The translations under genes were made by a program, and so were the position numbers. 19,514 bases of DNA. Source: a virus (Duplodnaviria > Heunggongvirae > Uroviricota > Caudoviricetes). This document shows, one piece after another, positions 1 to 17,486 of this stretch. Below the pieces are notes generated by a model, which did not search any database, was not told the origin of the DNA, and saw nothing but the letters and a program-made list of their open reading frames with translations. The stretch covers positions 1-19,514 of the IMG/VR virus record IMGVR_UViG_2585427793_000004; one strand, 5' to 3'. How positions within the stretch are numbered: position 1 is the first letter of the stretch; every line of letters starts with the position of its first letter.

Positions 1-357
1 ATCAGCGGCTTCCTGCAAAATCCTGATAGCTTTTTTAACGCCATGCTGAACGGCTGCATCGAACACAAACATCGCCACGCCATCAGGCCACTGGTCACAT
101 CCGGCAGGCAGCCAGTAATCGCGCCAGTAAATCTGCGCGACCTGTTCGCGGGTTAAATCCCTGATGCGGGTATCCGGTTTACCGTCGCCGCTGACATCGG
201 TTTTGCCGTCAATCACACCGTCGCGGCGGTCAGAAATGCCGTATTTGGTTTCACCGCCGCTGTCTGTGGGGTCATTGACATAGCCGCCTTCGATATCGGG
301 ACGCAGAATAAAATTCAGCGCATGTTCAAAGGCCGGGGAGAATTTTTGATTTTCCAT
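1..357 (-). CDS. GH108-type lysozyme / peptidoglycan hydrolase, N-terminal part (3' end outside window); probable endolysin of the Mu-like phage
   Basis: Minus-strand ATG at 357, open to the window edge (119 codons, no stop). Translation MENQKFSPAFEHALNFILRPDIEGGYVNDPTDSGGETKYGISDRR... carries the EGGYVNDP-x-D-x-GGETKYGI signature I recognise as the glycoside hydrolase family 108 N-terminal domain. Not in the supplied ORF track because it has no in-window stop. Confidence 0.6.
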   Translation of the reverse strand, partial: MENQKFSPAFEHALNFILRPDIEGGYVNDPTDSGGETKYGISDRRDGVIDGKTDVSGDGKPDTRIRDLTREQVAQIYWRDYWLPAGCDQWPDGVAMFVFDAAVQHGVKKAIRILQEAAD

Positions 358-369
358 AAAAGCACCTGT

Positions 370-396
370 GAAGCAGATTTAAACGTGGTCTGCTTC
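370..396 (-). promoter_or_regulatory. Perfect 8-bp inverted repeat upstream of the lysozyme gene
   Basis: GAAGCAGA-N11-TCTGCTTC, 13 bp upstream of the ATG at 357 and just downstream (minus-strand sense) of the terminator at 411-437. Function not determinable from sequence. Confidence 0.3.
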
Positions 397-410
397 ATGG
401 TGCCGGAGGC

Positions 411-437
411 ATAAAAAAAGCCGGATTTACCGGCTTC
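411..437 (-). terminator. Rho-independent terminator ending the early/middle transcript
   Basis: Minus-strand RNA reads AAGCCGG-UAAAU-CCGGCUU followed by a run of 7 U; lies ~25 nt 3' of the stop of CDS 459-956. Confidence 0.7.
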
Positions 438-458
438 ATTGAATATCAGGTTATTGAC

Positions 459-956
459 TCAGTTAACTTTACGGGCAGAACATGTAGTCTTCATTACTGA
501 ACGTTCAATTTTTATCTTCCAGCCATTTACTGTTTTTTCGACAGGATCATCTTCCGTCTGCTTTAAATTATCCACATACATAAAATTCAGCGGGGATGGA
601 GTATCATCGTCCCATGATGTCGGGCGAACATAATCAGGGACAACAAAAGGTTCAAAAACAGTTTCACATAAAGCAGACGTCATTTGAGCAAAGTCGTCGC
701 TATCGGGACGAACCGGTCCTGTAACATACTGCATTTTTATGTTGATTTCGTTATCTCGCACAGACGTCTTTAAATCCTGATATACACCTAAGTTAAATCC
801 TTTAAACTCAGCAATGGCAGCATCACCTTTACCGTACCAGTCGGTATAGTCAACGGATGTTTTTTTCTGAAAAACATCTTTGACTTTTTGCTGGAATGTA
901 TCCGCCGCTTGTACAGTAGTAACAGTTAGTAAAAGAATAAGGGGAAGATATTTCAT
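459..956 (-). CDS. Secreted (Sec signal peptide) hypothetical protein, 165 aa; candidate moron
   Basis: ATG at 956 with AAGGA RBS, ATGA overlap with the mor stop. N-terminus MKYLPLILLLTVTTVQA-AD is a typical signal peptide with AxA cleavage site. Region is visibly more AT-rich than neighbours, roughly 35-40 percent GC by eye. Confidence 0.7.
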   Translation of the reverse strand: MKYLPLILLLTVTTVQAADTFQQKVKDVFQKKTSVDYTDWYGKGDAAIAEFKGFNLGVYQDLKTSVRDNEINIKMQYVTGPVRPDSDDFAQMTSALCETVFEPFVVPDYVRPTSWDDDTPSPLNFMYVDNLKQTEDDPVEKTVNGWKIKIERSVMKTTCSARKVN

Positions 957-1354
957 TGTTCGTCCTTAAATAGTTGCATTTGATATTTTCCACGCTCCAG
1001 TCGACGCATTCTTTTGATGGCCTGATATACCGTTTTGTATGTCACTTTGTAACGCTGCACCAGCTCCGCTACGTTTTTCCCATCAAAATCACGCCAGATG
1101 CGCATGTCTCTGATAAGATTTTCCAGTATTTTCCCTTTCGGGACATATACCTGAATCCCACCGATATGATTGCAAATCGCCACTACCAGCTCAAGAGAGT
1201 GGGCAGGGTTAACTCCAAGCCTTATCAGCTCCTGTCGCAACAGAGCATTCAGCTCAGCCAGTAAAGATGGAAATCCCGACTTTTCCTGAACATCATCAAA
1301 ATATTCAAGGATACTGTCGTCCTGATAATCACCAAATAAATCCTGCTCTTTCAT
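953..1354 (-). CDS. mor: Mor/C-family transcriptional activator (Mu middle operon regulator-like)
   Basis: 133 aa; ATG at 1354 with GGGAGA RBS and ATGA overlap with the upstream gene. Sequence ...LFGDYQDDSILEYF...FPSLLAELNALLRQELIRLGVNPAHSLELVVAICNHIGGIQVYVP...TVYQAIKRMRR matches my recollection of Mu Mor. Position right after gemA matches Mu gene order. Confidence 0.8.
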   Translation of the reverse strand: MKEQDLFGDYQDDSILEYFDDVQEKSGFPSLLAELNALLRQELIRLGVNPAHSLELVVAICNHIGGIQVYVPKGKILENLIRDMRIWRDFDGKNVAELVQRYKVTYKTVYQAIKRMRRLERGKYQMQLFKDEQ

Positions 1355-1902
1355 AGAACTATTCTCCCGCTGTTTCTGGCGCGGGCATACGCACTGGTCA
1401 GTGCATCATATCCACGCAGTTCCCGCCCGGTTTCGCTCACAGGTAAAGGCACACCATGTCGGGCAAAAGCTTCCCGAATGCAGCGCATATGCCACTGTTT
1501 GAGCGTTTCGAGCACAATCTGCAACGATTCCCCATAACACCAGGTCAGCGTGGAAACCCCCTGACCACCATTACGTCTGGCCGTCAGGCGTTCAACGTAT
1601 TTGTCCAGCGCGGCGTCGCTGATATCGGAGACGAAACCATCAAGAAACATCTGCTGCCAGATTTTATAAATCTTCTCGCGCGGTGTGACATACCCCTTAA
1701 AGCGACGGCGGGGATGTTTTTTCTGCTTCTTAAAACCGCGCTCTTTCATGGCATTGAGCACCTGTTCCAGTTGTGTAACGGACAGCTCGCGGCAACTGGT
1801 CTTGCCCGTGCACTGCACCAGAAAGGCGCGGTAAGTGTCATCGTCGAGGTGCAACTCCCGGCGGGCAACATGAATTAATTTAATCAGGGATGTGCGGCTC
1901 AT
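1351..1902 (-). CDS. gemA: GemA-like protein (Mu gp16 / DUF1018 family)
   Basis: 183 aa; ATG at 1902 with GGGGGA RBS. N-terminus MSRTSLIKLIHVARRELHLDDDTYRAFLVQCTGKTSCRELS is the conserved GemA-type signature; sits immediately upstream of mor as in Mu. Confidence 0.7.
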   Translation of the reverse strand: MSRTSLIKLIHVARRELHLDDDTYRAFLVQCTGKTSCRELSVTQLEQVLNAMKERGFKKQKKHPRRRFKGYVTPREKIYKIWQQMFLDGFVSDISDAALDKYVERLTARRNGGQGVSTLTWCYGESLQIVLETLKQWHMRCIREAFARHGVPLPVSETGRELRGYDALTSAYARARNSGRIVL

Positions 1903-2215
1903 TATGTCCCCCGGATTTAAAAATTAATTCAGTGTTGAATAGCTCTTTACTCATTCGCTGTAGCACATCAAGGGCGGCAACTGCCGCCACTTTATCCTGG
2001 CTGGCAATGATTCCCCGCAACTCTTCGATAATCCATGCAGGACTTAATGATTCAGCAATCATCATGCGCTTTTCTGAAATTAAATTTTCTCTGGCCTGCT
2101 CAAAGTGCTGGTATACAACATTATCCAGAAAATAATTTACATCTTGTTCTGACATACCACTGGAAATTAAGGTTGCAGCCATTAAATCAGCATCAGTAAT
2201 CATCTGTATTTTCAT
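1880..2215 (-). CDS. Hypothetical early protein, 111 aa
   Basis: Track ORF 1880-2248 trimmed to the ATG at 2215, which has an AGAGG RBS (MKIQMITDADLMAATLISSG...). Same strand and tight packing with flanking early genes. Confidence 0.5.
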   Translation of the reverse strand: MKIQMITDADLMAATLISSGMSEQDVNYFLDNVVYQHFEQARENLISEKRMMIAESLSPAWIIEELRGIIASQDKVAAVAALDVLQRMSKELFNTELIFKSGGHNEPHIPD

Positions 2216-2390
2216 TTCGTAATACCTCTTCGCAATAAAAGATTTCACCGGGATAACGTTTTTGTATGCGCTCCATCACCTGCATACATGCCTGCTCTGT
2301 GGGCCAGATTTTTTCTGTTACCGGGATAGCATCACAGGCATCATTCCCGCAGGTGCCAACCAGCAGGACAAAGCCAATTGACTTAATCAT
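2193..2390 (-). CDS. Small Cys-rich hypothetical protein, 65 aa, with hydrophobic N-terminus
   Basis: Track ORF 2193-2486 trimmed to the ATG at 2390 (MIKSIGFVLLVGTCGND...), which overlaps the stop of the upstream gene in ATGA-like fashion. Six cysteines. The longer track start lies inside the upstream CDS. Confidence 0.4.
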   Translation of the reverse strand: MIKSIGFVLLVGTCGNDACDAIPVTEKIWPTEQACMQVMERIQKRYPGEIFYCEEVLRNENTDDY

Positions 2391-2922
2391 GCTCACTGGC
2401 TTCCTGTGTTGCCGCCGGAACCGGTGAATAATCAAGAATGAGATAGCGCATGACGTGGTCGGTGATATTCCAGCCACTGGAGCCACAAATAAAACGTCCC
2501 AGCCGGATATCGATATACGCCATCACAAAACGGGGCATTCCCTGTTTGCACATTTCATCGCCCACTTCTGCAACGATGTAAACCGACTCGCAGGTCAGTA
2601 CGCCTGTCGCAAATTCTTTTGCCAGTGCCGGAATGGCATTGCCTTCCAGCCAGGGCAAAGAGCGGCGGAACGCACACCATTGAGCATCATCAACAGCGGG
2701 GTGCTCCGTTGTGTTTCGTCTTACCGGCGGCGTCGGGCGAGGGCGCGGAACATCATAAAACCCGTTGCATTCTGTCAGCATTCCGGCATCAACCGCATCA
2801 CGCAGGAAATACACCATTGAAGAAGGTGGCATATTCATTTTTTCCGCCAGAACGCCACAGGTCAGACGTCCGTAAGCCCGTAATAATGTACTGACACCGT
2901 TCAGAACTTTTGCATCAACCAT
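2383..2922 (-). CDS. Hypothetical early protein, 179 aa, possible winged-helix N-terminus
   Basis: ATG at 2922 with AGGA RBS; Pro-rich linker PRPRPTPPVRR between two halves. No family recognised. Confidence 0.55.
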   Translation of the reverse strand: MVDAKVLNGVSTLLRAYGRLTCGVLAEKMNMPPSSMVYFLRDAVDAGMLTECNGFYDVPRPRPTPPVRRNTTEHPAVDDAQWCAFRRSLPWLEGNAIPALAKEFATGVLTCESVYIVAEVGDEMCKQGMPRFVMAYIDIRLGRFICGSSGWNITDHVMRYLILDYSPVPAATQEASEHD

Positions 2923-3020
2923 TTTTTATTCCTGAGTAATCTGTTTCAGGCGCGAGCAATCCCCTGACGCATCGCGCCATAATTAAAAGAAAGTGAATTA
3001 ATTAAATATTCGTGGTGGTA

Positions 3021-3545
3021 TTAAATACCGGCTTCCTGTTCAAACGGAATAATAGAAAAATCTTCAATGCCTGATTTAACTGTAATTCCGGCGACACCTG
3101 CGACTGCTTTCGGTTCCAGTAAAATCGCTTCCTTGTTGATTTCCTGTTTCGTGCGAATAAAGCGTTGCAGGCCAAGACGCTCCAGCGTTTCCATCACCGC
3201 ATCCACACCGCGAATACTTACCGATGGTGGGCGCTGACGCCATTGCACATCACCGGTAACGAGGTTAGCACTTTTCACTTTGCCGCCGTTCGTCAGCTCG
3301 TCACGGTTCGCTTCACACCATCCCTGAACGCCTTTTGAAAGGGTTTCAATACTGGTTTTAAGGGGTGCAATCTGTGAGGCGTATTTCTCCGTAATCTCAG
3401 CGATAGCGTCATTCATTTCCGTTTCAAGTCGTGCCGCTTCGCGTTGCAGGTCACCAATCCGGCGGATATCACATACCACGGCATCACGGGATTGCGGAAC
3501 ATAAGTCGCTGCGGCGTTCCTGATTCGTTTTGCTGACTTAGCCAT
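3021..3545 (-). CDS. gam: Gam-like host-nuclease inhibitor (Mu Gam, Ku-like DNA-end-binding protein)
   Basis: 174 aa; ATG at 3545 with AGGAG RBS. MAKSAKRIRNAAATYVPQSRDAVVCDIRRIGDLQREAARLETEMNDAIAEITEKYA...NGGKVKSANLVTGDVQWRQRPPSVSIRG...EPKAVAGVAGITVKSGIEDFSIIPFEQ agrees closely with my recollection of Mu Gam. Confidence 0.85.
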   Translation of the reverse strand: MAKSAKRIRNAAATYVPQSRDAVVCDIRRIGDLQREAARLETEMNDAIAEITEKYASQIAPLKTSIETLSKGVQGWCEANRDELTNGGKVKSANLVTGDVQWRQRPPSVSIRGVDAVMETLERLGLQRFIRTKQEINKEAILLEPKAVAGVAGITVKSGIEDFSIIPFEQEAGI

Positions 3546-3565
3546 ATAAATAAAGCTCCTGTTAA

Positions 3566-3853
3566 TTAATATTCGCTGTATACAATACTGGATACAGCAC
3601 GATTGCTTAATTCCATCTTTTTGGCTATCACATGAATAGCCAGCCCTTCTTTATAAAGTTCACGACACAAATATTTGTCGTGCTCACTGATTCGGTATGC
3701 ACACAACGATATTCCGTGCCTTCTGGCATGTGCCCTGAGGGCCGTTGTGGCAACGTTCAGTTTTTTCGCCATTTCTTCAACGGTCATTTTTCCGACACTG
3801 GCTTCGATAAATTCCCGGTCTTCGCGTGACCAGCGTTTACGATTACACATCAT
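3566..3853 (-). CDS. Small DNA-binding protein with two HTH-like segments
   Basis: Track ORF 3566-3865 begins with GTG; the ATG at 3853 (MMCNRKRWSREDREF...) is preferred. Segments MTVEEMAKKLNVATTALRAHARRHGI and LAIHVIAKKMELSNRAVSSIV look like helix-turn-helix units. Confidence 0.5.
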   Translation of the reverse strand: MMCNRKRWSREDREFIEASVGKMTVEEMAKKLNVATTALRAHARRHGISLCAYRISEHDKYLCRELYKEGLAIHVIAKKMELSNRAVSSIVYSEY

Positions 3854-3865
3854 TCCGGTCACCAC

Positions 3866-4285
3866 TCAGTACAACAGGGGTTCGCGCAGTGATGCCGGAA
3901 TATGCCGCAGCGATAACTGAACCGCTTTCAGGGCAAGGGAAGAATACGTCCCCTGCGTCCAGCCTTTCGCCATTTGCCGGTACTCGCGCCAGATGTTCTG
4001 CCACTGCTCCCGTGCGTCCGGGTCTGACGCGCTGATGTATTCTCGGTCCATGACGTATTCCCATAAATCCACATTGAAGGCATTGCCAAACGTAATGGCG
4101 CGGAATACCGCCTCCCCGCAATAACGGGCACAAATGCTGTAATGGTCAAATGCAATCAGGTAAGTCTTTTCGCCATACCCCTTAACTTCGCGCGCGCAAA
4201 TAAATTCGCGCAAGTCTCCACCATTGCTATTACGCTCTTTAATCCGAATTAATGCCTGGATTTCGTTTCTGATTCTGGCGTTCAT
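3866..4285 (-). CDS. Hypothetical early protein, 139 aa
   Basis: Track ORF 3866-4333 trimmed to the ATG at 4285 with AAGGA RBS (MNARIRNEIQALIRIKERNSNGGDLREF...). No family recognised. Confidence 0.5.
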   Translation of the reverse strand: MNARIRNEIQALIRIKERNSNGGDLREFICAREVKGYGEKTYLIAFDHYSICARYCGEAVFRAITFGNAFNVDLWEYVMDREYISASDPDAREQWQNIWREYRQMAKGWTQGTYSSLALKAVQLSLRHIPASLREPLLY

Positions 4286-4305
4286 TGTCAGCGTTCCTTT
4301 GTGAA

Positions 4306-4575
4306 TTAATGTGTTGCGGCATCCGGGTTGCACCGGAATAACTCGCCTTCAACTTCCAGCCCGCGTTCCCTGGCGGATTCCAGCAACGCCCGGGTCGCCT
4401 TCTCAATAATTTCAGACGCCATACTCTTGATAATGCCTGCCATCAGATCATGCGGCCCGACCTGTCCCTCCGGGGATTGCTCTTCCAGCCGCACATTCAT
4501 ATTGATATAAAAATGGTTATTTCTTTGCATCTCAGCACTTTCTGCGCAATTAAATTCGAAGATGACCTTTGCCAT
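4306..4575 (-). CDS. Hypothetical early protein, 89 aa
   Basis: Track ORF 4306-4629 trimmed to the ATG at 4575 with GAGGA RBS (MAKVIFEFNCAESAEMQRNNHFYI...). Confidence 0.5.
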   Translation of the reverse strand: MAKVIFEFNCAESAEMQRNNHFYINMNVRLEEQSPEGQVGPHDLMAGIIKSMASEIIEKATRALLESARERGLEVEGELFRCNPDAATH

Positions 4576-4607
4576 TTTGTTATTCCTCACAAATAAAAAG
4601 TTCACTA

Positions 4608-4835
4608 TTAACGCCAGATAATCTGGCAACCATTAAGACGGGCTGTCCATACAGAACGGGCTACCCCGGACTTATGCTCCATAATTCTGACCGCGTTTTT
4701 TACCAGCTCCACCGGTGGGTATGTGATTTCAAGAATCGGACGAGCCACGCCGAGATATGATTCATTTACATGACTCCCGCGCGCCTGTAACCAGTTCTGC
4801 GCATCCGTCGCCATTTTGATATTCCGTGACATCAT
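4608..4835 (-). CDS. Small early protein, 75 aa, in the position of Mu kil
   Basis: ATG at 4835 with AAGGAG RBS, 14 nt after the B stop ([20 protein letters not shown]...). Assignment is positional only: in Mu the gene immediately after B is kil. Confidence 0.5.
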
Positions 4836-4848
4836 GATTTCGCTCTCC

Positions 4849-5787
4849 TTACGTGCGCAGCAGAGTTGAAATATCAACGTCCAGGTCTAATTCACGGAAA
4901 GCCTGACGCAGATAATCTTCATTAACTCGTTCACCTTTGCCGTGGGCGGTCATGGCCGCAAGGCGCAGCGAGTGGTTCAGGATTCGAAGCGCACCTGGTT
5001 TTTGTGCAATCTGCTGTAATAATTCCCGCTCGTTTTCGCCGGTAATTTGCCAGGCATCCGCAATGGCTTTTACATCATCAATTTTGGTTTTATTAATTGC
5101 CGTCCGCTTTGCAATACGGGAAAACAGGCGGGCAAATTCAACCGTTCTGTTACCGCCGGTCATGTTTGAATAAACACGGTGATTCCCCATCAGAACAAGA
5201 CCAATACGGGCGGATTCCTGTAACAGGCGGAGTTCTTCCAGAACCTCAGCGCCAAGATGATCAGCTTCGTCGATAATGACCAGCCCCTGCGTACCTTCAA
5301 GGCGGCGTCGCAAAGCGCGGGAGAGTGGCCCCTTACGGCGCGGTGCGTCATTCATTCCCAGTTCATAAGCCAGTTCAGTCAGGCATTCCAGAACACTGGC
5401 ACAGGATGGGGTAATGGTGATCAACCAGACATTGTTATTGGTGCGCCGAAATTCGCGGGCCGCTTCAGTTTTTCCCACACCTGGATTACCGCAGATAACA
5501 GAAATACTTTCAGTCAGACTGGCAAAACGCATACTCGTCCAGATTTGGCGTGCTGTTCTGGTTTCCACAAAACGCGGGGGTTCTGGCAGCTCTGCGGCGC
5601 GGTGATAGTTTTCCAGCCAGCGTTCCAGCGTCTGCGCGACACGGTCATTGTCTCCGTTGTACTTGTTATTCACGAATGCGCTTAACGTTCCTGCGGCCAC
5701 GCCGGACTCGCGGGCAATTTGTGCATAAGTTGTTTTTTCACTTTCTACAAGCGTGCGCAGTCCTGCGCGAATATCGGAAATATTCAT
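4849..5787 (-). CDS. B: Transposition ATPase / target DNA activator B (MuB-like, AAA+)
   Basis: 312 aa, the length of Mu B; Walker A GNPGVGKT and Walker [11 protein letters not shown]; N-terminal HTH. Near-identical over long stretches to Mu B as I recall it ([15 protein letters not shown]..., ...[12 protein letters not shown]). Confidence 0.9.
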
Positions 5788-5825: not shown

Positions 5826-7907
5826 TTAAATGGCTTTTTTACGTCTGTTCTGTTCCAGAATATCCAGCGAATGATTCAGATATTCGTCGCGGTCACTCTC
5901 ATATTCATCATCCGGTTCATCAGCCAGTACTAACACGACTTTCTCCACTGGTCTGTAGACGTTGTTGAACAACCCGTTGCCTGTAACAGGAGCAGGCAGT
6001 GTTCGGGTATTCTCTGCCTCGGCCAGTCTGATTTTTTCCTCTCCCCGCTGACGCATCCCTTTGATGCGCTGCTGGCGCTGATGGTATTCTGCAGTGACCG
6101 GGAATGCCTGCTGTTTATTGCCATCCCAGACCGCCTCACAGATATAGGACCCGTCCATGCGGCGGATAATTACTTTTGTTGCATCATGAATATCGTAATT
6201 CACCAGCACCTTATTACCGTGTTCATATTCCAGATCAGTTGAATAATAAATGTTATTAAACAACCTGACTTCACAACGGTTGACTGTACGTTCAATCTGC
6301 GGCATAAACATTTCACGCAGTTCAAGGTCGGACAACCATTCGATTTCTGTCGCTTCTTTTTCCAGTTTGTAGCGTCGGAACTGCGCCGGGGTGTAATGTT
6401 CACCGTTTCCACGTAGTGGTAGCGAACTATGCGGACGGTTGTTGTACCATTCCACACCAGCTTCAATAGCAACAATAAGTTCATTCCATGACGGCAGGTT
6501 TTTTAAAGCCTGCCGTTGTTTTTCTGTCAGCTCCCGTCCTTTGTTTGCCGCATTTGTTGCAGACATCAGAGTCTTTGTCATACGACGAACCGTTCCACGG
6601 TCGGCACCGGTGCCATAATACGTGGCAAACTGACGTGATATACGCATAGCCAGAGTGCGGTTCAGACGCTCTATAATCCCTCGCCCTTGCGGGTTTTCAG
6701 GTATACCAAGACGGTGATCAATTCCAAGACGCGGTAAAACCCCCGTGATATCAGCATCAAACGTGTTGTTAGTTTCACCGCCGCCATTATCTGAATAATA
6801 GATGTACGGTTTTCCGTGATTTTTAATTCCGTGGCGTAACGCATCAGCAACAGCAACCACACTTTCAGAAAGTGCCAGACTCCAGCCCACAATAAAGCGG
6901 CAACTGCCGTCCATGATAAAGGTGACTTCTGGAGAAAATGGATTGCCGTGATCAGGATGCGCCACTTTCATCTTCATGCCGTGACCATCACCAATCCAGG
7001 CATAATTCACCGGCAAAGATAACCAGTCCCGACGCACGAAGCCTTCATACTGGCGGAACTCACTGCCAGTAATGCGTCCGCGTTGTTTCACAACAACCGG
7101 GAGTTTGTTCATTGCATAGCAAACCTGATCATACGACGGCAGTGCTGCACACATCGCAGGATTATCCTGATGCACTTCATACCATTCCGCAGCAAAATCA
7201 TCATAAGCCTCCTGCATTCCGCACCCGTTCGGACGACGGTAAAAACGAAGAAACTCAGGTAACCAGCGAATCTGGTCGGGTTTTATGGGTTGACGTTTAC
7301 CAGGTGCCAGCATGATCAAACGTTCAGCCGGAGTGGTAGCCTTTTTAAAATCAGCAATCCAGCGTTTCAGTGATATTTCACTAAGGGATCGCAATGAACC
7401 TTTTTTCGCATTCGCAGTTGCAACGGTTTCCACCAGGTGTGCCGGTAACTCACCGTTTTTAGCCTGTTTCACAAACTCACGGATGGCAGCAGCCTGGCTG
7501 ATTCCTGGTAGTTCACAAACGCGCAAAACTTCGCTGACAATCGCAATTCGGGCGTCCGCTGTTTCTTTTTGCGTGGCGGTTAACGTTCCGAGTTTCTGCT
7601 CAAACAGCGCAGGACATTTGCGGTAAACCGCAATTTTGCCGTCTTCACGTTTTTTTAAACGCGGAGATTCAGGTTCTTTTGCCTCAGTTGCTGGCTGATT
7701 CATTAACGCCTTAATCTGGCGAGCCTGTAACGCCTTACGCGCCACATCAGGCAAACAGTCGACATGGAACTCAAAAGCCTTTGTCCCTGCACGCTTACGC
7801 ATCATTCCTTCTGATTCGCCGCAATAACGGCGCAATGCTTCCCGAATTCCTTTAATTGTTTTTGGTAATCCTGGTACACCGACCAGCTCTTTGGCGAGAA
7901 CAAACAT
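5826..7907 (-). CDS. A: DDE transposase A (MuA-like)
   Basis: 693 aa, ATG at 7907, 3 nt after the ner stop. N-terminal LPGLPKT motif as in the MuA DNA-binding domain; C-terminal tail ...DEYESDRDEYLNHSLDILEQNRRKKAI matches the MuA C-terminus as I remember it. Sits between ner and B as in Mu. Confidence 0.9.
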   Translation of the reverse strand: MFVLAKELVGVPGLPKTIKGIREALRRYCGESEGMMRKRAGTKAFEFHVDCLPDVARKALQARQIKALMNQPATEAKEPESPRLKKREDGKIAVYRKCPALFEQKLGTLTATQKETADARIAIVSEVLRVCELPGISQAAAIREFVKQAKNGELPAHLVETVATANAKKGSLRSLSEISLKRWIADFKKATTPAERLIMLAPGKRQPIKPDQIRWLPEFLRFYRRPNGCGMQEAYDDFAAEWYEVHQDNPAMCAALPSYDQVCYAMNKLPVVVKQRGRITGSEFRQYEGFVRRDWLSLPVNYAWIGDGHGMKMKVAHPDHGNPFSPEVTFIMDGSCRFIVGWSLALSESVVAVADALRHGIKNHGKPYIYYSDNGGGETNNTFDADITGVLPRLGIDHRLGIPENPQGRGIIERLNRTLAMRISRQFATYYGTGADRGTVRRMTKTLMSATNAANKGRELTEKQRQALKNLPSWNELIVAIEAGVEWYNNRPHSSLPLRGNGEHYTPAQFRRYKLEKEATEIEWLSDLELREMFMPQIERTVNRCEVRLFNNIYYSTDLEYEHGNKVLVNYDIHDATKVIIRRMDGSYICEAVWDGNKQQAFPVTAEYHQRQQRIKGMRQRGEEKIRLAEAENTRTLPAPVTGNGLFNNVYRPVEKVVLVLADEPDDEYESDRDEYLNHSLDILEQNRRKKAI

Positions 7908-7910
7908 AAA

Positions 7911-8159
7911 TCAGGATACCTTCTGAATGTAGCTTTCTGTCTGATAGCGGCTGGGCCAGATAGTTTCCGGTGCAACCCCCAGCGCATCAGCAACAATCTG
8001 CTGATAAGGTTTGCACGGTGTGCGTAAAACACTCTTGAGGGAGTCTTTGCTGTAACCCGCCTGAATGGACAGTGCGCGAAATGACAGTCCCCGTTTGTGA
8101 ATCTCTGCCTTAATGATTTCAGGGTGCCAATCGGCACGCGGATCTTCTTTTCGAGTCAT
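7911..8159 (-). CDS. ner: Ner-like DNA-binding early regulator
   Basis: 82 aa; ...ADWHPEIIKAEIHKRGLSFRALSIQAGYS...ETIWPSRYQ resembles Mu Ner (shared ...IWPSRYQ motif). Divergent from the repressor gene, immediately upstream of A. Confidence 0.8.
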   Translation of the reverse strand: MTRKEDPRADWHPEIIKAEIHKRGLSFRALSIQAGYSKDSLKSVLRTPCKPYQQIVADALGVAPETIWPSRYQTESYIQKVS

Positions 8160-8310
8160 GATTCCACTATCCTAAAAAGTTATCCGTGCGGATAACCGCG
8201 CGGTTATCCACTCGGACAAAGAATAAGAACACAAAAAGAACTTGTCAAATGTTCTTTTGTGTTTTTTATGTGTCTGCACTTTTTGTCTTTTAATTCAATT
8301 GGATAAGCAA
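8160..8310. promoter_or_regulatory. Divergent early/repressor promoter-operator region
   Basis: 151-bp gap between the divergent ner and repressor genes. Three alternating GTTATCC half-sites at 8179-8209 (GTTATCCG-TG-CGGATAAC-CGCGCG-GTTATCC), plus an imperfect palindrome CACAAAAAGAAC-N9-GTTCTTTTGTG at 8230-8261. Confidence 0.6.
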
Positions 8311-8922
8311 ATGAAACGTGAGACTCAAAAAGAACACAATGGTTCTTTTGCTCCTGATTCAAAAGAACCTGTTATCAATAGAATTTTTAAACTAGTAGAT
8401 CGCTATCGTTCGAGAAATGAAGCTGCGAAAGCGTGGGGAATCAACATCAATACGTTACAGAACTATTACAAACGTAAAGACCTCTCTCCAGTACCAAGAA
8501 AAACTCTGTTAGAAAAGATAGCGCAGTGTGAAGGGGTCAGCCTTGAATGGCTTCAAACCGGAGAGGGAAAAGAACCAGAAATGAACATAAAAAGAACTCA
8601 AGACGGTTTAGTGCCGCCTCATTCAGATTTAGATGATAAAATCCTATCGCTGATCCGCTTTTTGTCTGATAGCGAGAAAGAAGCGTTATTCCAGGTGCTT
8701 GCTCGCAAAGGGATAGAAACACTACTTTTTCTCCTTGACGAAGATAATATTCGCTTACTACAAATGGATCGCGTAGTGAAAGAGAAAATCCTGGGAATCC
8801 AGCCCAGAACGCCCGAGGAGCAGGCTTTTGCAGATAACGAGGCGAGAGAGTGTGATACCACTCATCCTTTACGCCATGAACAGTCCAAGAGCCTGACAAC
8901 TAAAAAGCAGCAGGCCCGCTGA
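8311..8922 (+). CDS. Phage repressor with CI-type helix-turn-helix
   Basis: Track ORF 8242-8922 starts at a TTG; first ATG is 8311 (MKRETQKEHNG..., 203 aa). NEAAKAWGININTLQNYYKRKDL...EGVSLEWLQTGEG resembles the phage CI-repressor HTH. Only convincing + strand gene in the window, divergent from ner as the Mu repressor is. Confidence 0.7.
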   Translation: MKRETQKEHNGSFAPDSKEPVINRIFKLVDRYRSRNEAAKAWGININTLQNYYKRKDLSPVPRKTLLEKIAQCEGVSLEWLQTGEGKEPEMNIKRTQDGLVPPHSDLDDKILSLIRFLSDSEKEALFQVLARKGIETLLFLLDEDNIRLLQMDRVVKEKILGIQPRTPEEQAFADNEARECDTTHPLRHEQSKSLTTKKQQAR

Positions 8923-9089: not shown

Positions 9090-9249
9090 TTGACGTAGTA
9101 TCAAAAGTTTTACCCAAACTGGCATTTTCCTTTGATGGTATCAAAAAAGCGGTAACACGAAATCAGCCTAACAACACAACCTAACTCGTTGTTTTATCCC
9201 GCCAAATCCCGTTTATTCTAATGTTCTCCCGGTTTTCTCTCTGGTATCA
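9090..9249 (-). repeat. Mu-type left end (attL-like) with three direct copies of a transposase-binding-like repeat
   Basis: On the element strand the motif TTTGATAC(C/T)A-N5-8-AAAA occurs three times (+ strand GTATCAAA at 9099-9106, 9143-9150, 9245-9252), spaced like Mu L1/L2/L3. Element-strand sequence from 9249 inward, TGATACCAGAGAGAAAACCGGGAGAACATTAGAATAAACGGGATTTGGCGGGAT, resembles the Mu left end as I recall it (...GAAAAAAACCGGGAGGACATTGGATTATTCGGGATCTGATGGGAT...). Exact terminus uncertain by about 10 bp. Confidence 0.55.
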
Positions 9250-9627
9250 AATAAACTCCTTCTCAATAAGCAGGGTGCCACCGGCATAAACAATCTCGCC
9301 CCCCTGCGGATCCGGCATCCATCCAAGCAGGGCTTTCCAGAGTTCTCTCCGGACATCATGAACGGCGTCATAGGCTGCCCACTGCCCTTTTTCATCACGC
9401 TCATTGCTGAGCACAACAATCACGGAGAAGCCTTCTGTCAAATCCTGCCAGTAATCGGTCTGTGATTTTTGTTCCCCCGGTGCATCGTCAGAGGGAACCA
9501 CATAGGCAGCAGGCAGTCGCAGTTTTCCGGCATCAGGGATCGCCTTAAACTGCGCCGCGCCACCAACACGATCCTCAAAACGCGGGCATCGCTCACGCAA
9601 CGCCGCAATTATCGTTGTCAGTTTCAT
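9247..9627 (-). CDS. Phage neck / tail-terminator-like hypothetical protein, 126 aa, possibly 3'-truncated by the Mu-like insertion
   Basis: ATG at 9627 overlapping the stop of the upstream gene. Its TGA stop (9247-9249) falls inside the first bases of the putative Mu-like end, so the native C-terminus may be replaced. Family assignment is a guess from position after a gp10-like gene. Confidence 0.55.
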   Translation of the reverse strand: MKLTTIIAALRERCPRFEDRVGGAAQFKAIPDAGKLRLPAAYVVPSDDAPGEQKSQTDYWQDLTEGFSVIVVLSNERDEKGQWAAYDAVHDVRRELWKALLGWMPDPQGGEIVYAGGTLLIEKEFI

Positions 9628-10148
9628 TTATGCTTCCTTTTTACCGGACGTAACGAACGCTGCAGCTCACGGGACAACAGTTCCTGCGTCCAGTGACGCC
9701 GCCGCTCAATAACGTCAGCCATAAAGTTATTACGCGGGGCCAGCCGGAAAGTCGAAGAATGGTGCTTCTTCTGCCGCTTATCCTTTTTGTCCATTCCATA
9801 CGCTGAATGGCGAACGCCGTAATACAGAAATGCCGGATAATAGGATGCGCCTTCATGGAAACGGCGATTCCCCTGCCCGTTTTTCTGGTTAGGAGAAATT
9901 TTCACCATCAGTCCGGGGCGACGCGTCGTTTTTTTGGGAACGTAATAACCGATGGAGCGGGCCAGACGCCCGGTCTGATATCCCGGATTCTCTCCCGGAC
10001 CGGAACGCCCGCGTTTAATCACCAGACGTCTGGCGTCGCGCATATAGACGCGCCCGATCTGCACAAATGCCCGCCGCAGACGGGCACGATTAAACTCCAG
10101 CTCCTTTGGTTGTTTAAAGTCGACGTGTAAAAATGCTGTCTGATTCAT
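9624..10148 (-). CDS. HK97 gp10-family head-tail joining protein
   Basis: Track ORF 9624-10187 trimmed to the ATG at 10148 with GGGGTGA RBS (MNQTAFLHVDFKQPKELEFNRARL...). Motif RGRSGPGENPGYQTGRLARSIGYYV resembles the conserved PG...TGRLRRSI signature of the HK97 gp10 family. Confidence 0.65.
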   Translation of the reverse strand: MNQTAFLHVDFKQPKELEFNRARLRRAFVQIGRVYMRDARRLVIKRGRSGPGENPGYQTGRLARSIGYYVPKKTTRRPGLMVKISPNQKNGQGNRRFHEGASYYPAFLYYGVRHSAYGMDKKDKRQKKHHSSTFRLAPRNNFMADVIERRRHWTQELLSRELQRSLRPVKRKHK

Positions 10149-10530
10149 GGCATTCACCCCATCGTCGCGCTGTACGCAGTTCCTCACATTCCAGTAATAA
10201 AAAACGTCGCTGACCGTTCAGGTCGCGTATTCGCCGGATCCGGTACTCCTGACCGTAATAAACCACCTCATGATCTGCCGTGATGCCGTGACGGAAACGG
10301 ATTGTAAAATAATGCGTAACGACATTTTCTGTCTGCACTGAGCCCTGATAAGCGGCAGCGCCTGGCTGAGCCACCTTTGCCCAGACATCAAACGACTCCG
10401 GATACGTTGGCTCCGTACCAAAATCAGCGGTGGGTTCATCCACCCGAAGGCGGATCTTTATCCGGCGATTCAGCTCTCCGGGATCCGGTAAAAGGTAAGT
10501 GGCACTGGTCTGACTTTGCCTGATTTTCAT
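10114..10530 (-). CDS. Head-tail adaptor / head closure protein
   Basis: Track ORF 10114-10563 trimmed to the ATG at 10530 (ATGA overlap with the connector stop). ...PGELNRRIKIRL...WAKV...YRIRRIRDLNGQRRFLLLECEEL is the typical head-tail adaptor signature. Confidence 0.7.
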   Translation of the reverse strand: MKIRQSQTSATYLLPDPGELNRRIKIRLRVDEPTADFGTEPTYPESFDVWAKVAQPGAAAYQGSVQTENVVTHYFTIRFRHGITADHEVVYYGQEYRIRRIRDLNGQRRFLLLECEELRTARRWGECHESDSIFTRRL

Positions 10531-10850
10531 AGCGGGACAATCCTGTAAGGGCCAGCAAGCCATCTGAAACTCATTGGCGTTTCCAGTTTCTCCACATCGG
10601 TGATCGTTGAGCGATTTTCATAAAAATGACTGACCAGCATCAGCATTGCCAGACGAACGTCATCAGTCAGATGCATCCCGTCAGGATCGTCTTCCGGAAT
10701 CGTCTCTTCCGGTGCATACAACTTCCTGTTCAGGTATGTCTCTGTTCTTTTCTGTACCGCCTGTGCCAGCAATTTCAGAAAATCGCCGTCACTGTACAAA
10801 CCATCATCGAGCCGGAGGTGAGATTTAATTTCCTCTTCTTTCAGGAGCAT
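10527..10850 (-). CDS. gp6-like head-tail connector protein
   Basis: The supplied track lists this ORF as +, but the translation MLLKEEEIKSHLRLDDG... is only obtained from the reverse complement: ATG at 10848-10850, strong AGGAGG RBS, TGA at 10527-10529. N-terminal ...EEIKSHLRLD... is the usual gp6-type connector start. Confidence 0.75.
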   Translation of the reverse strand: MLLKEEEIKSHLRLDDGLYSDGDFLKLLAQAVQKRTETYLNRKLYAPEETIPEDDPDGMHLTDDVRLAMLMLVSHFYENRSTITDVEKLETPMSFRWLAGPYRIVPL

Positions 10851-10861
10851 ATTTTCCTCCT

Positions 10862-10883
10862 GTGCCCGCCATTACGCGGGCAC
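10862..10883 (-). other. GC-rich stem-loop between major capsid and connector genes
   Basis: Perfect inverted repeat GTGCCCGC-cattac-GCGGGCAC, between the MCP stop (10896) and the connector RBS. On the - strand the U-run precedes rather than follows the stem, so not a canonical terminator. Confidence 0.4.
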
Positions 10884-10895
10884 AAAAAAACCGCA

Positions 10896-12122
10896 TTACG
10901 CAGTGGCTTTCTGGCGGGTTGCAGCCCCAATTTTCATCAGCTTAATCGCCTGAGAATCCACCAGCATACCGCCGGTTCGCTTGGTGGTATAAAAACCCAC
11001 AAACGGTTTGTTGGTGTACGGATCGCGCAGGATACGGGTACCGATGCGATCAACGATGGTATAGCCACGTTTGAAGTTACCAAACGCAATGGCTTTTGCA
11101 TCGGCGGCAATATCCGGCATCTGCTCATTCTCAACGATGCCATACCCTGCCAGAGAAGAAGGCTGACCCAGCTCAATACCCGGACGCCACAGATAATTTC
11201 CGTCGTTATCCTTCAGCAGACGAATGGCAAACAGGCTGCTGTTGTTCATCATGAACTTCGCGCCGCTGCGGTGCGCCTTACGCAGGGTGTAAATCAGTTT
11301 AATGATCGCATCAGCGGTCACGCCGGAAGCCGCACCGGAAGCGATATGCTGAAGTTTGCCAAACTTACGGGTTTTGTCATCTTCATCGGTGGACTCATAA
11401 GCCAGAAAACCTTTTGGTTTTTTGCTGCCGTCGCCACTGGTAAAGGCCATTTCTTCCTGTTCGGCAAATTCCAGCGCCAGCTCACTGTTGATCCAGTCTT
11501 CCACATTGAAGAAAGCGTCATCGAGCATTTTCTGGGTGGCCTGCGGGTTGCCGTAGATTTCCCCCATAAAGGGTTCAATCAGCCCCAGTTTTGAGGTGGC
11601 GGTTTCCGGACGCGTATCCGTTTCCCCCACCCATCCGGACTTAGTGCCGCCCAGATTCACCAGTTTTTTATAATCCGAGCCACCGAGGGTGATCACGGTG
11701 GCTTCCTGGCGCATCACCACCTCATCTTTCAGCAGCGTCAGGATGGTACGATCCAGTTCTTCCGGAATGGCATAACCACCATCTTCATCATTGCCCACCT
11801 GAAGCGCCTTACGTTCAAGTTCACGCAGACCGTCTTCACGCCCCTTGCGCATAAATCCGATAAACGCTTCTTTGTGTTCACCGGCAACTTTATTTTTCGT
11901 GCCGCCTGCCGGACGCTTAACTTCAGCCAGCTCAGCCTCAAGATCGCTTTTCAGGTTTTCCAGCTCGCTGATTTGCCCGTTCAGGCTTTCCACCTGTTCG
12001 GCCAGCTTGCTTTTTTCCTGTTCGATCGCGTCAATGCGCTTGTCGTTTTTTGCCTTAAAATCGTCAAACTTCTGCTGCAAATCCTGCGCGACCTGTTCAA
12101 CGTCTTTAATATCAACAGCCAT
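10896..12122 (-). CDS. Major capsid protein, HK97 fold, with N-terminal scaffolding-like delta domain
   Basis: 408 aa; ATG at 12122 with AGGAG RBS. N-terminal ~100 aa are coiled-coil-like (KLAEQVESLNGQISELENLKSDLEAELAEVK), followed by a capsid domain, as in HK97 gp5-type proteins. Confidence 0.9.
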   Translation of the reverse strand: MAVDIKDVEQVAQDLQQKFDDFKAKNDKRIDAIEQEKSKLAEQVESLNGQISELENLKSDLEAELAEVKRPAGGTKNKVAGEHKEAFIGFMRKGREDGLRELERKALQVGNDEDGGYAIPEELDRTILTLLKDEVVMRQEATVITLGGSDYKKLVNLGGTKSGWVGETDTRPETATSKLGLIEPFMGEIYGNPQATQKMLDDAFFNVEDWINSELALEFAEQEEMAFTSGDGSKKPKGFLAYESTDEDDKTRKFGKLQHIASGAASGVTADAIIKLIYTLRKAHRSGAKFMMNNSSLFAIRLLKDNDGNYLWRPGIELGQPSSLAGYGIVENEQMPDIAADAKAIAFGNFKRGYTIVDRIGTRILRDPYTNKPFVGFYTTKRTGGMLVDSQAIKLMKIGAATRQKATA

Positions 12123-12135
12123 TATTTACTCCTGG

Positions 12136-12786
12136 TTAAAATTTAAGATTTTTCAGTGCATTCAGTGCGACATCCACATCCTCAGCATCACGCAGGGATA
12201 AAGCGCCATATCCCCCGGCCATGAATGCTTTGGCCTGGGTTCGCGAGAGTCCAACATCGCGCAGGACTCGCTCAATAATTTTCTGATCAGGGATCTCCCC
12301 ACGCGCCAGCGCATTTTTCACATCGCTGATGCGTGCTTCATCATTGGAAGGAAACGTCACCAGACTGACCTCCCACAGGTCGATCTCTTTCAGCAGGAAT
12401 ACCCCTTTTTCCCGGTCGTACTCCCAGTCTTTCAGGATGTAGCCAACAGAAAGGCCGGTTAAAGAACCGGCCTTCATATGGGCGTGTGCACGTTTTGCCA
12501 GGGGATCATCATCAACGAGTAATCGCCCCCTGACATAAAGCCCGACATCATCTTCTTTCATTTCGGTGTACACACCGATGGGCTCATCCATGCGGTGCTG
12601 CCAGAGCAACGCAGGCAGCGCCTTTTTTTCGCTCCATTTCTGGAGTGTTGTGGTAAAGGCACCGGGGACCACCACATCATCGTGGCTGTCCTTTACACCA
12701 AAGACGGAGCCATACCCTTCAAACTCACCGGAGTCACTGACAGATTTCAGACTCAGCGGTACATCAAGACGTTGTTTCGTCTGCAT
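12136..12786 (-). CDS. Prohead maturation protease (HK97 family, S78-like)
   Basis: Track ORF 12136-12822 trimmed to the ATG at 12786 with AAGGA RBS (MQTKQRLDVPLSLKSVSDSGEFEGYGSVFGVKDSHDDVV...). Lies between portal and capsid genes. Confidence 0.8.
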   Translation of the reverse strand: MQTKQRLDVPLSLKSVSDSGEFEGYGSVFGVKDSHDDVVVPGAFTTTLQKWSEKKALPALLWQHRMDEPIGVYTEMKEDDVGLYVRGRLLVDDDPLAKRAHAHMKAGSLTGLSVGYILKDWEYDREKGVFLLKEIDLWEVSLVTFPSNDEARISDVKNALARGEIPDQKIIERVLRDVGLSRTQAKAFMAGGYGALSLRDAEDVDVALNALKNLKF

Positions 12787-14005
12787 TGGCGTTATCCTTC
12801 TGCTTACCGGCTTTACTGCCATCGGAGGGTTTCGTGGTCATGTTCATCGGTGTGAGATAGACATCACCACCGGGACGCGGATTCATATCTTCCAGGTCGC
12901 GGCAGTCATTGGGAGAGTAAATTCTCCAGTTGATCCCCGTGGCGTAGGCTTCAAAACGGGATTTCATATCCCCGCGCAGTAACGCCCCGGCGTTAAATTT
13001 GGCGTAAAACTTCCCCTGTTTGCTCTCCCTGACCAGCCCTGTATTGATCCGTTGTTCAATACGGGTCAGATACGGCACAAGGGAATAGTTGATAAATCCG
13101 AGCCCCAGCTCTTCAATATTGTTGAAAGTGGCGCGATCGGTGTTCTGCACCATGTGCAGCGGCACGCGGAAAAGACGACAGATTTCTTCCAGCTGAAACT
13201 TGCGGGTTTCCAGGAACTGGCTGTCCTCGGCGTTCAGTGCCACCGGCTTCCAGTCCAGCCCCATTTCCAGAATCATCGGACGGTGCGCATTACCCAGCCC
13301 AAGATGCCGCTCCTCAAAATCCCTCTTCATGCGCTCATAAGCATCCGGCGTGAGCTTTTGTTCCGTACGCAACACACCGGATGTCACAGCACCGTTACCA
13401 AACAGCCTGGCGCCGTGCTCCTCGGTTGCCGCTGCCAGTGAAATGGCCTCGCGCGCATATGCAATGGGATTCAGACCGACAAGTCCATCCAGCGTCAGGG
13501 TGCGCACATGCCAGATTTCATCCTGGGTCAACACATCCACGGAGCCATCCGGAAACGTCACCTGATAAACCGGCTGCCACTGGCTGTTCAGCTTCGGCTC
13601 CACACAGCCCGGATCTATCGGAAGAAGCTCCACTACTTCCCCCAGCGCCTTCACCTTGTAGGCGTAAAAATTCCCCCGCAGACACAGGCAGACAATAACC
13701 AGCTCCCAGAATTCCTGCGGCGTCATGTAGCCATTGGGTTTTGCTGAAATCAGCTTATGCAGCCGTTCATCCACCGCCCGTGTTTTAAGGGTGCCGCTGA
13801 TTTTGTAGAGACTGCAGGGCAGCATACCAACAGACTCAGCCAGCACCCTGACGCAGGAATACACCGCCGTCAGCCGCATGGCCCGCTGGCTGCTGATCCG
13901 CTTTCCGGTATAGGTGTCGTATGACAACCCCAGCTCTTCCGCAAGCATCCCGGGCGTTGTGACGGGGGTGTTATTTTTACGTTGAAAAAGCCCCTGGAAA
14001 AACAT
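12764..14005 (-). CDS. Portal protein (HK97 family)
   Basis: 413 aa; ATG at 14005 with GGAGGTGA RBS. Size and position between large terminase and protease are canonical. Confidence 0.85.
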   Translation of the reverse strand: MFFQGLFQRKNNTPVTTPGMLAEELGLSYDTYTGKRISSQRAMRLTAVYSCVRVLAESVGMLPCSLYKISGTLKTRAVDERLHKLISAKPNGYMTPQEFWELVIVCLCLRGNFYAYKVKALGEVVELLPIDPGCVEPKLNSQWQPVYQVTFPDGSVDVLTQDEIWHVRTLTLDGLVGLNPIAYAREAISLAAATEEHGARLFGNGAVTSGVLRTEQKLTPDAYERMKRDFEERHLGLGNAHRPMILEMGLDWKPVALNAEDSQFLETRKFQLEEICRLFRVPLHMVQNTDRATFNNIEELGLGFINYSLVPYLTRIEQRINTGLVRESKQGKFYAKFNAGALLRGDMKSRFEAYATGINWRIYSPNDCRDLEDMNPRPGGDVYLTPMNMTTKPSDGSKAGKQKDNANADETTS

Positions 14006-14187
14006 TACTCACCTCCGGAGGCGACCCGGTGACCACGATCGAGATAACGCGCAACCAGCCACGACCAGCACAGACACAGCCCCCCGGCAACAACAAAACC
14101 CGCCGGGGGATAAATCAGCCAGGCGCCATACGCCAGCAAAAGCACACCCAGCACGCCCACCAGAGGCGTGAGAATTATCAGAAACAT
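14005..14187 (-). CDS. Small two-helix membrane protein, 60 aa, inserted between terminase and portal
   Basis: ATG at 14187 with GAGG RBS; stop overlaps the portal [52 protein letters not shown] has two hydrophobic helices. HK97-type modules normally have terminase and portal genes adjacent. Confidence 0.45.
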
Positions 14188-14198
14188 AATGACCTCGG

Positions 14199-15956: not shown

Positions 15957-16438
15957 CAGTCTCTCGCTTTTAAAAGTTCTGCCAGCGGATCAACATCATC
16001 CGGTCCGGCGATATTTACTTTCGCCCGGCTTGCCGGTGACATACCAAATTCTGCAAGCATCGCCCGGATCCGCTTCCAGGCATCCGCTTTCATCGCAGCA
16101 GCCGGGTGTGCCTTAATCAGCACATCACCGTTCTGCGTTTCCGTGCGGTAGGTATAACCCTCAACATCGAGTGTTTCGCAGTGATGCCGGTATTCGGTGT
16201 AGGCTTCCACCAGCAACTCGAGTGCACGCGCATCAAGCTGAGAAATGATCCCTTCCGCATTCAGCTCTTCCGCCATTCGCCTGAACCAGTACTTTCCCTG
16301 CGCCCCTAAATGCTGCGGAATTTTAGGGAGACCTTTTTCGTCCTTTTTAGCGGTTTTTTTGGCGTCTTTAACGGGACGCTTTGAGGGATTGCCTCGTATC
16401 AAATGCAGGCGTGGCGGGGGTTTCGGGGGGCCTGACAT
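15956..16438 (-). CDS. Terminase small subunit (P27-family-like)
   Basis: 160 aa; basic, Lys/Pro-rich N-terminus (MSGPPKPPPRLHLIRGNPSKRPVKDAKK) then a helical domain; directly upstream of the large subunit. Confidence 0.75.
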   Translation of the reverse strand: MSGPPKPPPRLHLIRGNPSKRPVKDAKKTAKKDEKGLPKIPQHLGAQGKYWFRRMAEELNAEGIISQLDARALELLVEAYTEYRHHCETLDVEGYTYRTETQNGDVLIKAHPAAAMKADAWKRIRAMLAEFGMSPASRAKVNIAGPDDVDPLAELLKARD

Positions 16439-16585
16439 AATCGATTTTACCTATCAATCGTTTGATCGCATTCCCAAAAAAAAGTTTTCGAACCTGCGGC
16501 GATGCGAGGAAGGGTTGGCGGGCGGTCCCGGACAGCCAGGGCTGCAGGGATTTGCCCCGCCCCTCCCTACAAGTGAGAATAATTA
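16439..16585. other. Candidate cos / packaging-site region
   Basis: 147-bp non-coding, GC-rich gap between HNH and small terminase genes, where HK97-like phages place cos. Contains GGTTGGCGGGCGGTCCCGG, loosely reminiscent of lambda cosN. Speculative. Confidence 0.3.
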
Positions 16586-16936: not shown

Positions 16937-16997
16937 TGGAATCTCCTTAATACCGACATTATCGCAGCCCCTCACTGAAGAGCTGCTGTAATGCCTG

Positions 16998-17126: not shown

Positions 17127-17299
17127 AATTTTCTCCTGTTTTAATGCCCCTTGCCGCCGGGCAGTTGATCAAAGTTCATCTTGATTCGGCAAGATTTAGA
17201 ATGAATAAGATAAAATTGGCACACGCAGCAGAATTTCATGCTTTCCGGACGCTGACGCACCCTTCATTTTTCAGCAAAATATTCTGCTCTTACAGGCGA

Positions 17300-17482: not shown

Positions 17483-17486
17483 ATCA

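Follow-up and report, generated by a model that had tools for sequence, protein, structure and literature searches.

What do the small genes that lie between B and gemA in Mu-like phages contribute, and which of them belong to a stable set? Phage Mu itself has long posed this question: its semi-essential early (SE or SEE) region holds about 14 open reading frames (ORFs), mostly without known function, and deletion of the region restores host viability after infection (PMC3325207). The SE genes have been termed 'largely unknown' (PMC3820752), and the question extends to the genetic loci cim and arm. It returns with IMGVR_UViG_2585427793_000004, a stretch of 19,514 nucleotides that is called the window here and to which coordinates refer unless an L-number is given. 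The left 9.3 kb of the window constitutes the left arm of a Mu-type transposable prophage in reverse orientation, and a block of seven ORFs packed around gam, at 1880–4835, is the subject of this analysis.

Judged from its sequence relationships, the block is very probably the SE region of a Muvirus-type transposable prophage of Escherichia coli. The gene order on the minus strand is B, the seven ORFs with gam among them, gemA and mor, which is the position of the SE region in Mu, where it makes up the distal part of the early operon; gemA and mor are conserved genes at the far end of that operon. At the DNA level, positions 1300–5000 are 84–87% identical to D108, SfMu and Mu over 78–86% of their length and 91–94% identical to E. 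coli Mu-like prophages, with matches in 92 of 5,426 complete E. coli genomes. The host is likewise E. coli, because the DNA past position ∼9269 is 100% identical to E. coli strains. The first-pass annotation had placed the block in the Mu semi-essential region around gam, and this placement was correct. The block is already known in kind: nothing in it departs from the organization of Mu, D108, SfMu and the E. coli Mu-like prophages. The window copy combines genes of the known Mu region into a new mosaic, and its novelty is low. The block is made up as follows.

4608–4835, minus strand: kil, 75 amino acids (aa), the first gene after B; 98.7% identical to Kil of Mu and D108; phrog_2743, E = 4.9e-43
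4306–4575, minus strand: gp7, D108-type allele, 89 aa, acidic, isoelectric point (pI) 5.0; 69.7% identical to D108 gp7 over its full length; phrog_2230, E = 7e-29
3866–4285, minus strand: gp8/E7, 139 aa; 83–89% identical to gp8 of Mu, D108 and SfMu; phrog_3690, E = 7.8e-87
3566–3853, minus strand: gp9/E8, 95 aa, basic, with a predicted tandem helix-turn-helix (HTH); 92% identical to gp9 of Mu, D108 and SfMu; phrog_323, E = 4e-27
3021–3545, minus strand: gam, 174 aa, putative host-nuclease inhibitor binding the ends of double-stranded DNA; Pfam Phage_Mu_Gam, E = 1.7e-43; 90–95% identical to Gam of Mu and SfMu
2923–3020, minus strand: spacer between gam and gp11 with a conserved non-coding element, recognized by conservation and RNA folding; core at 2945–2988, hairpin GGCGCGA-N16-TCGCGCC at 2949–2978
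2383–2922, minus strand: gp11, 179 aa, with a probable winged-helix N-domain, a variable linker and a Gp11_C domain; 85–87% identical to gp11 of the Mu/D108/SfMu type
2193–2390, minus strand: orf65, 65 aa, acidic, pI 4.4, a cassette gene in the slot of Mu gp12/gp13; phrog_16556, E = 1e-28
1880–2215, minus strand: orf111, 111 aa, acidic, helical, pI 4.7, a cassette gene; 39% identical to SfMu gp14; phrog_1988, E = 7.4e-42

All seven ORFs first proposed for the early strand are present at exactly the coordinates given for them, and gam is readily recognizable among them. The contention that they have no assignable family does not stand: every one matches a PHROG family with E ≤ 4e-27, five of the seven are 70–99% identical to numbered proteins of Mu or D108, and the Gp11_C domain scores above threshold. 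For the remaining two, the counterparts are cassette genes of SfMu or E. coli Mu-like prophages, and their PHROG families occur in further Mu-like prophages of E. coli and Salmonella. When the seven were scanned against Pfam, NCBIfam and PADLOC, Gp11_C alone exceeded its threshold and the remainder gave sub-threshold matches or none; kil, gp7, gp8 and orf111 have no relatives above threshold in the Protein Data Bank (PDB), Pfam or NCBIfam. Sequence and profile searches of the PDB with all seven returned nothing significant except for marginal HTH matches of gp9. Protein comparison shows that Mu gp6 and gp12–gp15 are absent from the block. No function is established for most of its genes, in agreement with PMC3820752 and PMC3325207, and literature searches by accession, Pfam identifier and gene name found no functional studies of gp7, gp8, gp9 and gp11. 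Only Kil, along with the adjoining Gam, corresponds to a characterized Mu protein; both are host-directed, and the block does not resolve into Mu proteins of characterized housekeeping role.

The compact arrangement described at first pass is borne out. Gaps measure 12–32 bp, neighbouring ORFs overlap by 8 nucleotides at 2383–2390 and by 23 nucleotides at 2193–2215, and a further overlap of 23 nucleotides, at 1880–1902, joins the block to gemA. Through the sequence ATGATTAA the stop codon of gp11 and the start codon of orf65 are coupled, and the only larger gap is the 98-bp spacer from gam to gp11. In ATG start and in length the ORFs match the orthologues annotated in Mu, D108 and SfMu, and Shine–Dalgarno-like sequences stand before the starts, which are conserved in position. 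The ratio of nonsynonymous to synonymous substitution (dN/dS, Nei–Gojobori), calculated against Mu, D108, SfMu and the prophage of E. coli STEC388, amounts to 0.04–0.26 for all seven ORFs, a range shared by MuB, gam and gemA. Owing to these values, all seven are regarded as genuine protein-coding genes under purifying selection. Antisense and alternative-frame ORFs in the block gave no match to PHROG or phage families.

Promoter-like sites are depleted in positions 1–5000 (one found against 6.8 expected), and on the coding strand just one strong terminator was found, at 417–437, after orf165, the ORF following mor. A single long early transcript fits this layout, because the genes are co-oriented, promoters are scarce and only one strong terminator is present. 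The block would thereby be transcribed together with ner, A and B as one early message from Pe that ends at the terminator behind mor and orf165.

The structure of the region became apparent in a survey of 80 IMG/VR loci carrying a gp11 relative, together with reference phages, onto which all reference proteins were mapped. A conserved backbone, B-(kil, gp8, gp9)-gam-gp11-gemA-mor, is interrupted by three exchange slots. Between kil and gp8, gp6 is present or absent and gp7 is of either Mu or D108 type; the window lacks gp6 and has the D108-type gp7. Between gam and gp11 a DUF5420 gene is present or absent, and in the window this slot is empty and contains the conserved hairpin spacer alone. 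Between gp11 and gemA, loci harbour diverse mixtures of gp12, gp13, orf65, orf111, gp14 and gp15; in the window, orf65 and orf111 replace gp12–gp15 of Mu. In the 17 loci that contain orf65, this gene never occurs together with gp12 or gp13. The gene combination of the window is one of many. Taken alone, the block adds little: the region had been sequenced and its genes numbered in Mu, D108 and SfMu, and this is a further mosaic arrangement of it. It is of use for comparison, as a deeply conserved set (kil, gp7, gp8, gp9, gam and gp11) can be told apart from the three exchange slots. The survey also yields an orphan family, gp8, that tracks kil, a confident fold for one cassette protein, orf65, and a conserved non-coding element behind gam.

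Comparison with individual relatives illustrates this mosaicism. Mu (NC_000929) shares the position after B, the strand and the backbone order, with protein identities of 99% for Kil, 83% for gp8, 92% for gp9, 90% for Gam, 87% for gp11 and 79% for GemA. The window differs from Mu in lacking gp6 and gp12–gp15, in its D108 allele of gp7, in the orf65 and orf111 occupying the gp12–gp15 slot and in a Mor that is only 63% identical. D108 provides the gp7 allele (70% identical), and SfMu the nearest gp8, gp9 and gam (89–95%) as well as the only homologue of orf111 in an isolated phage (gp14, 39%). Unlike the window, both carry gp6, gp12 and gp13 and neither has orf65, and SfMu fills the gam–gp11 slot, empty here, with a DUF5420 gene. 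The E. coli STEC388 prophage (NZ_CP041425) and the IMG/VR loci L005, L007 and L016 have the same gene set including orf65, with gp8 100% identical at the nucleotide level and gp11 97–100% identical. In STEC388, which shares this gp8, kil is 84% identical in nucleotides and 87% in amino acids and a homologue of orf111 is missing; moreover, gp9 has an internal stop and gam is frameshifted (L004 3230–4054), so that this is a decaying copy and the window copy is intact. L005 differs in its Mu-type gp7. The nearest relatives of the window are thus mosaics themselves.

Kil has a dN/dS of 0.04–0.12. It had no match in the Pfam copy searched, from which PF26843 (Kil_protein) is apparently missing; the window protein is 50% identical to a Kil homologue annotated with PF26843 in a distant Mu-like contig. 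According to PMC3961180, which cites Waggoner et al. 1989, expression of Mu kil gives rise to spherical cells. At 99% identity, the Kil encoded here would be expected to act as Mu Kil does, as a small, basic, host-killing toxin that renders cells spherical. The adjacent gp7, with a dN/dS of 0.18, finds no BLASTP match in Mu gp7, although length, position and termini are common to both.

The third gene, gp8, is an orphan family that, as far as sequence searches reveal, is confined to enterobacterial Mu-like phages and tracks kil. Just 24 clusters were retrieved among 5.8 billion proteins, and all but one are at least 72% identical to the window protein. The exception, P0143, resembles the translation of a frameshifted gene. 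When 1.84 billion representatives were searched exhaustively with HMMER, one true distant relative emerged, 34% identical, which sits between MuB and the same 50%-identical Kil homologue; two further matches, P0148 and P0150, were dismissed as spurious hits to repeat proteins. The similarity of gp8 to MbtH-like PDB chains is not significant (E = 0.5).

Divergent counterparts of all three genes occupy the interval between B and gam in distant Mu-like prophages (L048 2008–3292; L091 1754–2324; L080 2149–2664), where the gp8-like ORF is located directly upstream of the kil-like ORF and overlaps it. In Salmonella-type Mu-like prophages, whose gam is ∼65% identical in nucleotides, the interval accommodates a 139-aa ORF 27% identical to gp8, followed by a Kil-like ORF of 76 aa and two tandem gp7-like ORFs; the E-values of these assignments come from a tiny database, and synteny carries much of the weight. 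The tandem duplication of the gp7-like gene is a feature of the Salmonella-type elements. As relatives are found in both distant Mu-like and Salmonella-type prophages, kil, gp7 and gp8 are taken to form an old conserved set and not recent morons.

Two further members of the backbone are candidate DNA-binding proteins. A double HTH had been suspected in gp9, and both halves indeed yield HTH-like matches and an internal repeat is discernible (alignment A5): W-S-x-E-D...GKMT..EMA....HARRHGISL, then S-E-H-D...EGL....IA.KMELS.RAV. No curated threshold was passed: the best Pfam match, HTH_Tnp_1, scores 21.4 bits against a cutoff of 24.1, and GerE and HTH_23 match the second half below their cutoffs. 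A gp9 profile compared with the PDB retrieved the HTH of gamma-delta resolvase (E = 0.003) and the tandem-HTH protein 2lvs (E = 0.0045), and phrog_323 is annotated as 'transcriptional regulator, D5-like'. The best reading of gp9 from these matches is a predicted tandem-HTH protein, that is, a DNA binder with two HTH units. An alternative GTG start at 3865 would give the 99-aa form found in Mu.

The product of gp11 contains Pfam PF25754 (Gp11_C) at residues 90–167, with 128.8 bits against a cutoff of 27, and its 220 homologues all derive from E. coli or Salmonella. The winged-helix-like N-terminus that had been proposed for this ORF is weakly supported, the structural model having a low predicted local distance difference test score (pLDDT) of 57; gp11 is probably a winged-helix protein with a family-specific C-terminal domain. 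Between the two genes, gam encodes a protein that, at 90% identity to its Mu counterpart, would bind the ends of double-stranded DNA and block host exonucleases; Mu Gam is a Ku-like end binder (PMC3820752).

Among the cassette genes, orf65 has the widest spread of any family in the block. It has no counterpart in Mu, D108 or SfMu; its family comprises 249 clusters across Enterobacterales, including Serratia, Yersinia, Erwinia, Pantoea, Edwardsiella, Salmonella and E. coli. Lambdoid phages of Yersinia and Aeromonas carry relatives too, in their early-left regions. In Yersinia, homologues are found as conserved chromosomal genes outside prophages (L087–L090, 4001–4195), flanked by two genes for EamA-family transporters and with a TetR regulator nearby. 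Four cysteines, C14, C19, C35 and C53, are invariant in 45 homologues and possibly constitute a metal site or disulfides. An AlphaFold 2 model with a pLDDT of 87.6 places a strand at residues 2–15, a second at 18–29, a helix at 32–45 and a last strand at 50–59. The protein is thus predicted to adopt a compact beta-beta-alpha-beta fold whose hydrophobic N-terminus is the first strand. A Pfam similarity to DUF1482 reaches 15.5 bits and is below the cutoff of 25.

The neighbouring orf111 family extends to Salmonella-type prophages at 28–34% identity, with the motif SLSPxWII..L..I..G.DK.AAVAAL retained, and its dN/dS is 0.25. A similarity to PRK14127 (GpsB) amounts to 21.2 bits against a cutoff of 91, and no match above threshold was found in the PDB or NCBIfam.

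The 98-bp spacer after gam is better conserved than the genes on either side: it is 94–96% identical to Mu and D108, as against 84–86% for the flanks. In the comparison with Mu alone the figures are 94% for the spacer, 86% for gam and 84% for gp11, and in that with Salmonella-type prophages the spacer core stands at 81–93%, gam at 65–66% and gp11 at 67–73%. The core reads TTTTAATTATGGCGC-NN-(T)GCGTCAGGGGAYTGC-NN-GCGCCTGAA, and the RNA folds into a GC-rich hairpin of −17.4 kcal/mol (z = −1.7) without a U-tract behind it. Covariation was not detected, the outer stem being invariant and inner positions varying without compensation, and a search of Rfam gave no match. A conserved micro-ORF was ruled out as the basis of this conservation by a one-nucleotide indel that shifts the frame between lineages. 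Insertions of the optional DUF5420 cassette are invariably located immediately 3′ of the hairpin element. The hairpin spacer may act in cis on expression or cassette exchange in the SE region, as a signal for mRNA processing or stability, as a site where a protein binds or as a boundary for recombination.

How secure is this picture of a functional Mu-type block against other interpretations? It is barely credible that the prophage is degenerating and that some ORFs, above all the two without a Mu counterpart, are spurious or in decay. A pseudogenized gp9 and a frameshifted gam do occur in STEC388, the closest E. coli relative, and the neighbouring prophage of the host is disrupted by the Mu-like insertion; however, all seven frames are intact, their dN/dS values lie between 0.04 and 0.26, and their starts are conserved behind Shine–Dalgarno-like sequences. 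The two cassette genes themselves speak against decay: orf65 combines its 249 homologous clusters with 11 invariant columns and a confident fold, and orf111 has homologues down to 28% identity that keep the conserved motif. A second interpretation concerns the description of orf65 as cysteine-rich with a hydrophobic leader, of which the cysteines stand and the leader is modelled as a core beta-strand, not as a signal peptide. The protein could be secreted or be a lipoprotein, with a very short signal peptide leading to a lipobox-like cysteine and disulfides formed in the periplasm, and serve in superinfection exclusion or as an envelope modulator. Its N-terminus, MIKSIGFVLLVGTC, is hydrophobic and has a lysine at position 3, most family members read MLIGFVLLVS[AS]C, fitting the lipobox [LVI][ASTVI][GAS]C, and the cysteines are invariant. 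Export is nevertheless distinctly unlikely, given that just 11–13 residues precede the cysteine, most homologues lack a positively charged n-region, the lipobox is broken in the window copy (VGTC) and in some others (VSPC), and AlphaFold pairs residues 2–15 as a strand with 18–29 at a pLDDT of about 90.

A further interpretation, raised at first pass, is that one or more of the ORFs encode an anti-defence protein, an inhibitor of a host immune system, for which the gp7 alleles, orf65 and orf111 in the exchange slots would be the likeliest candidates. Small acidic proteins sitting in such slots are compatible with this, but in both sequence and structure the similarity to characterized inhibitors never rises above what a generic small alpha/beta fold would produce; deep conservation, not rapid replacement, marks kil, gp7 and gp8, and orf65 has its conserved chromosomal homologues outside prophages. 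An anti-defence role is, on this evidence, rather unlikely. Anti-defence-type matches were absent from the NCBIfam and PDB searches of the block ORFs, and a PADLOC scan, whose models describe defence and not anti-defence systems, returned a chance-level match of gp9 to GajB (E = 8e-4) over the HTH-like stretch and none for the other six. Speculatively, the small acidic gp7, orf65 and orf111 proteins might bind host proteins and act in takeover or counter-defence during lytic growth. Pseudomonas Mu-like phages furnish an analogy in Tip of D3112 and Aqs1 of DMS3, whose genes lie in the early regions of these phages. Neither shows sequence similarity to any ORF of the block and the analogy would be functional only; both are small transposable-phage proteins that bind host proteins (PMC12035536).

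To return to the reading of the block as a Mu-type SE region with host-directed and regulatory genes, several observations weigh against parts of it. A purely phage-versus-host role of the orf65 family is disfavoured by the chromosomal, non-phage copies in Yersinia. The idea that gp8 is an obligatory Kil antidote was rejected, as four loci keep kil without gp8. The HTH matches of gp9 are below the curated Pfam thresholds, and the gp11 model is of low confidence. Lastly, as candidates for the regulatory and replication functions of the SE region that genetics has defined (cim, arm), gp9 and gp11 rank first, and this assignment is a guess. It is possible, if doubtful, that the block harbours something new in one of two forms: either a slot-resident acidic protein or gp8 would be an inhibitor of a host factor or of a defence system with an undescribed mechanism, or the hairpin spacer would be a cis-acting element.

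The remaining features of the left arm are the following.

8242–8922, plus strand: candidate repressor, from ORF calls and Pfam
7911–8159, minus strand: ner, from Pfam
5826–7907, minus strand: A, from Pfam
4849–5787, minus strand: B (MuB), 89% identical to the Mu protein
1351–1902, minus strand: gemA; Pfam GemA, E = 6.7e-31; 79% identical to Mu GemA
953–1354, minus strand: mor; Pfam Mor, E = 6.6e-30; 63% identical to Mu Mor
459–956, minus strand: orf165, 165 aa, with a classical signal peptide, MKYLPLILLLTVTTVQA/AD; it overlaps the mor stop (ATGA) and is followed by the terminator at 417–437

The ORF at the repressor position has a TTG start and encodes 226 aa, with a weak YfeC-like similarity as its sole Pfam match. 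On account of this length and this match, the immunity region is considered unlike Mu c and D108 c, both annotated as 525 bp (about 174 aa). At the opposite end of the early operon, orf165 has neither a Pfam nor a PHROG match; Mu, D108 and SfMu lack it, a few related loci (L007, L014 and L016) contain it, and it looks like a moron added to the operon end. Directly after the early-operon terminator, positions 1–445 are 96% identical to the start of the GH108 endolysin gene of STEC388 (L004 618–1062). In the phage lineage of the window no homologue of Mu gp18–gp20 or C is situated between mor, whose product is 63% identical to Mu Mor, and the lysis gene.

At its left end, at about 9268, the Mu-like prophage is inserted into the 3′ end of the tail-terminator gene (∼9247–9627) of another prophage. 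This interrupted prophage (9269–19514) encodes TerS, TerL, a portal protein, an S78 protease, a capsid protein and head-closure proteins. E. coli strains with an uninterrupted copy of the second prophage match the window at 100% identity from 9269 onwards; as this prophage is intact in those strains, the Mu-like element must have disrupted it here.

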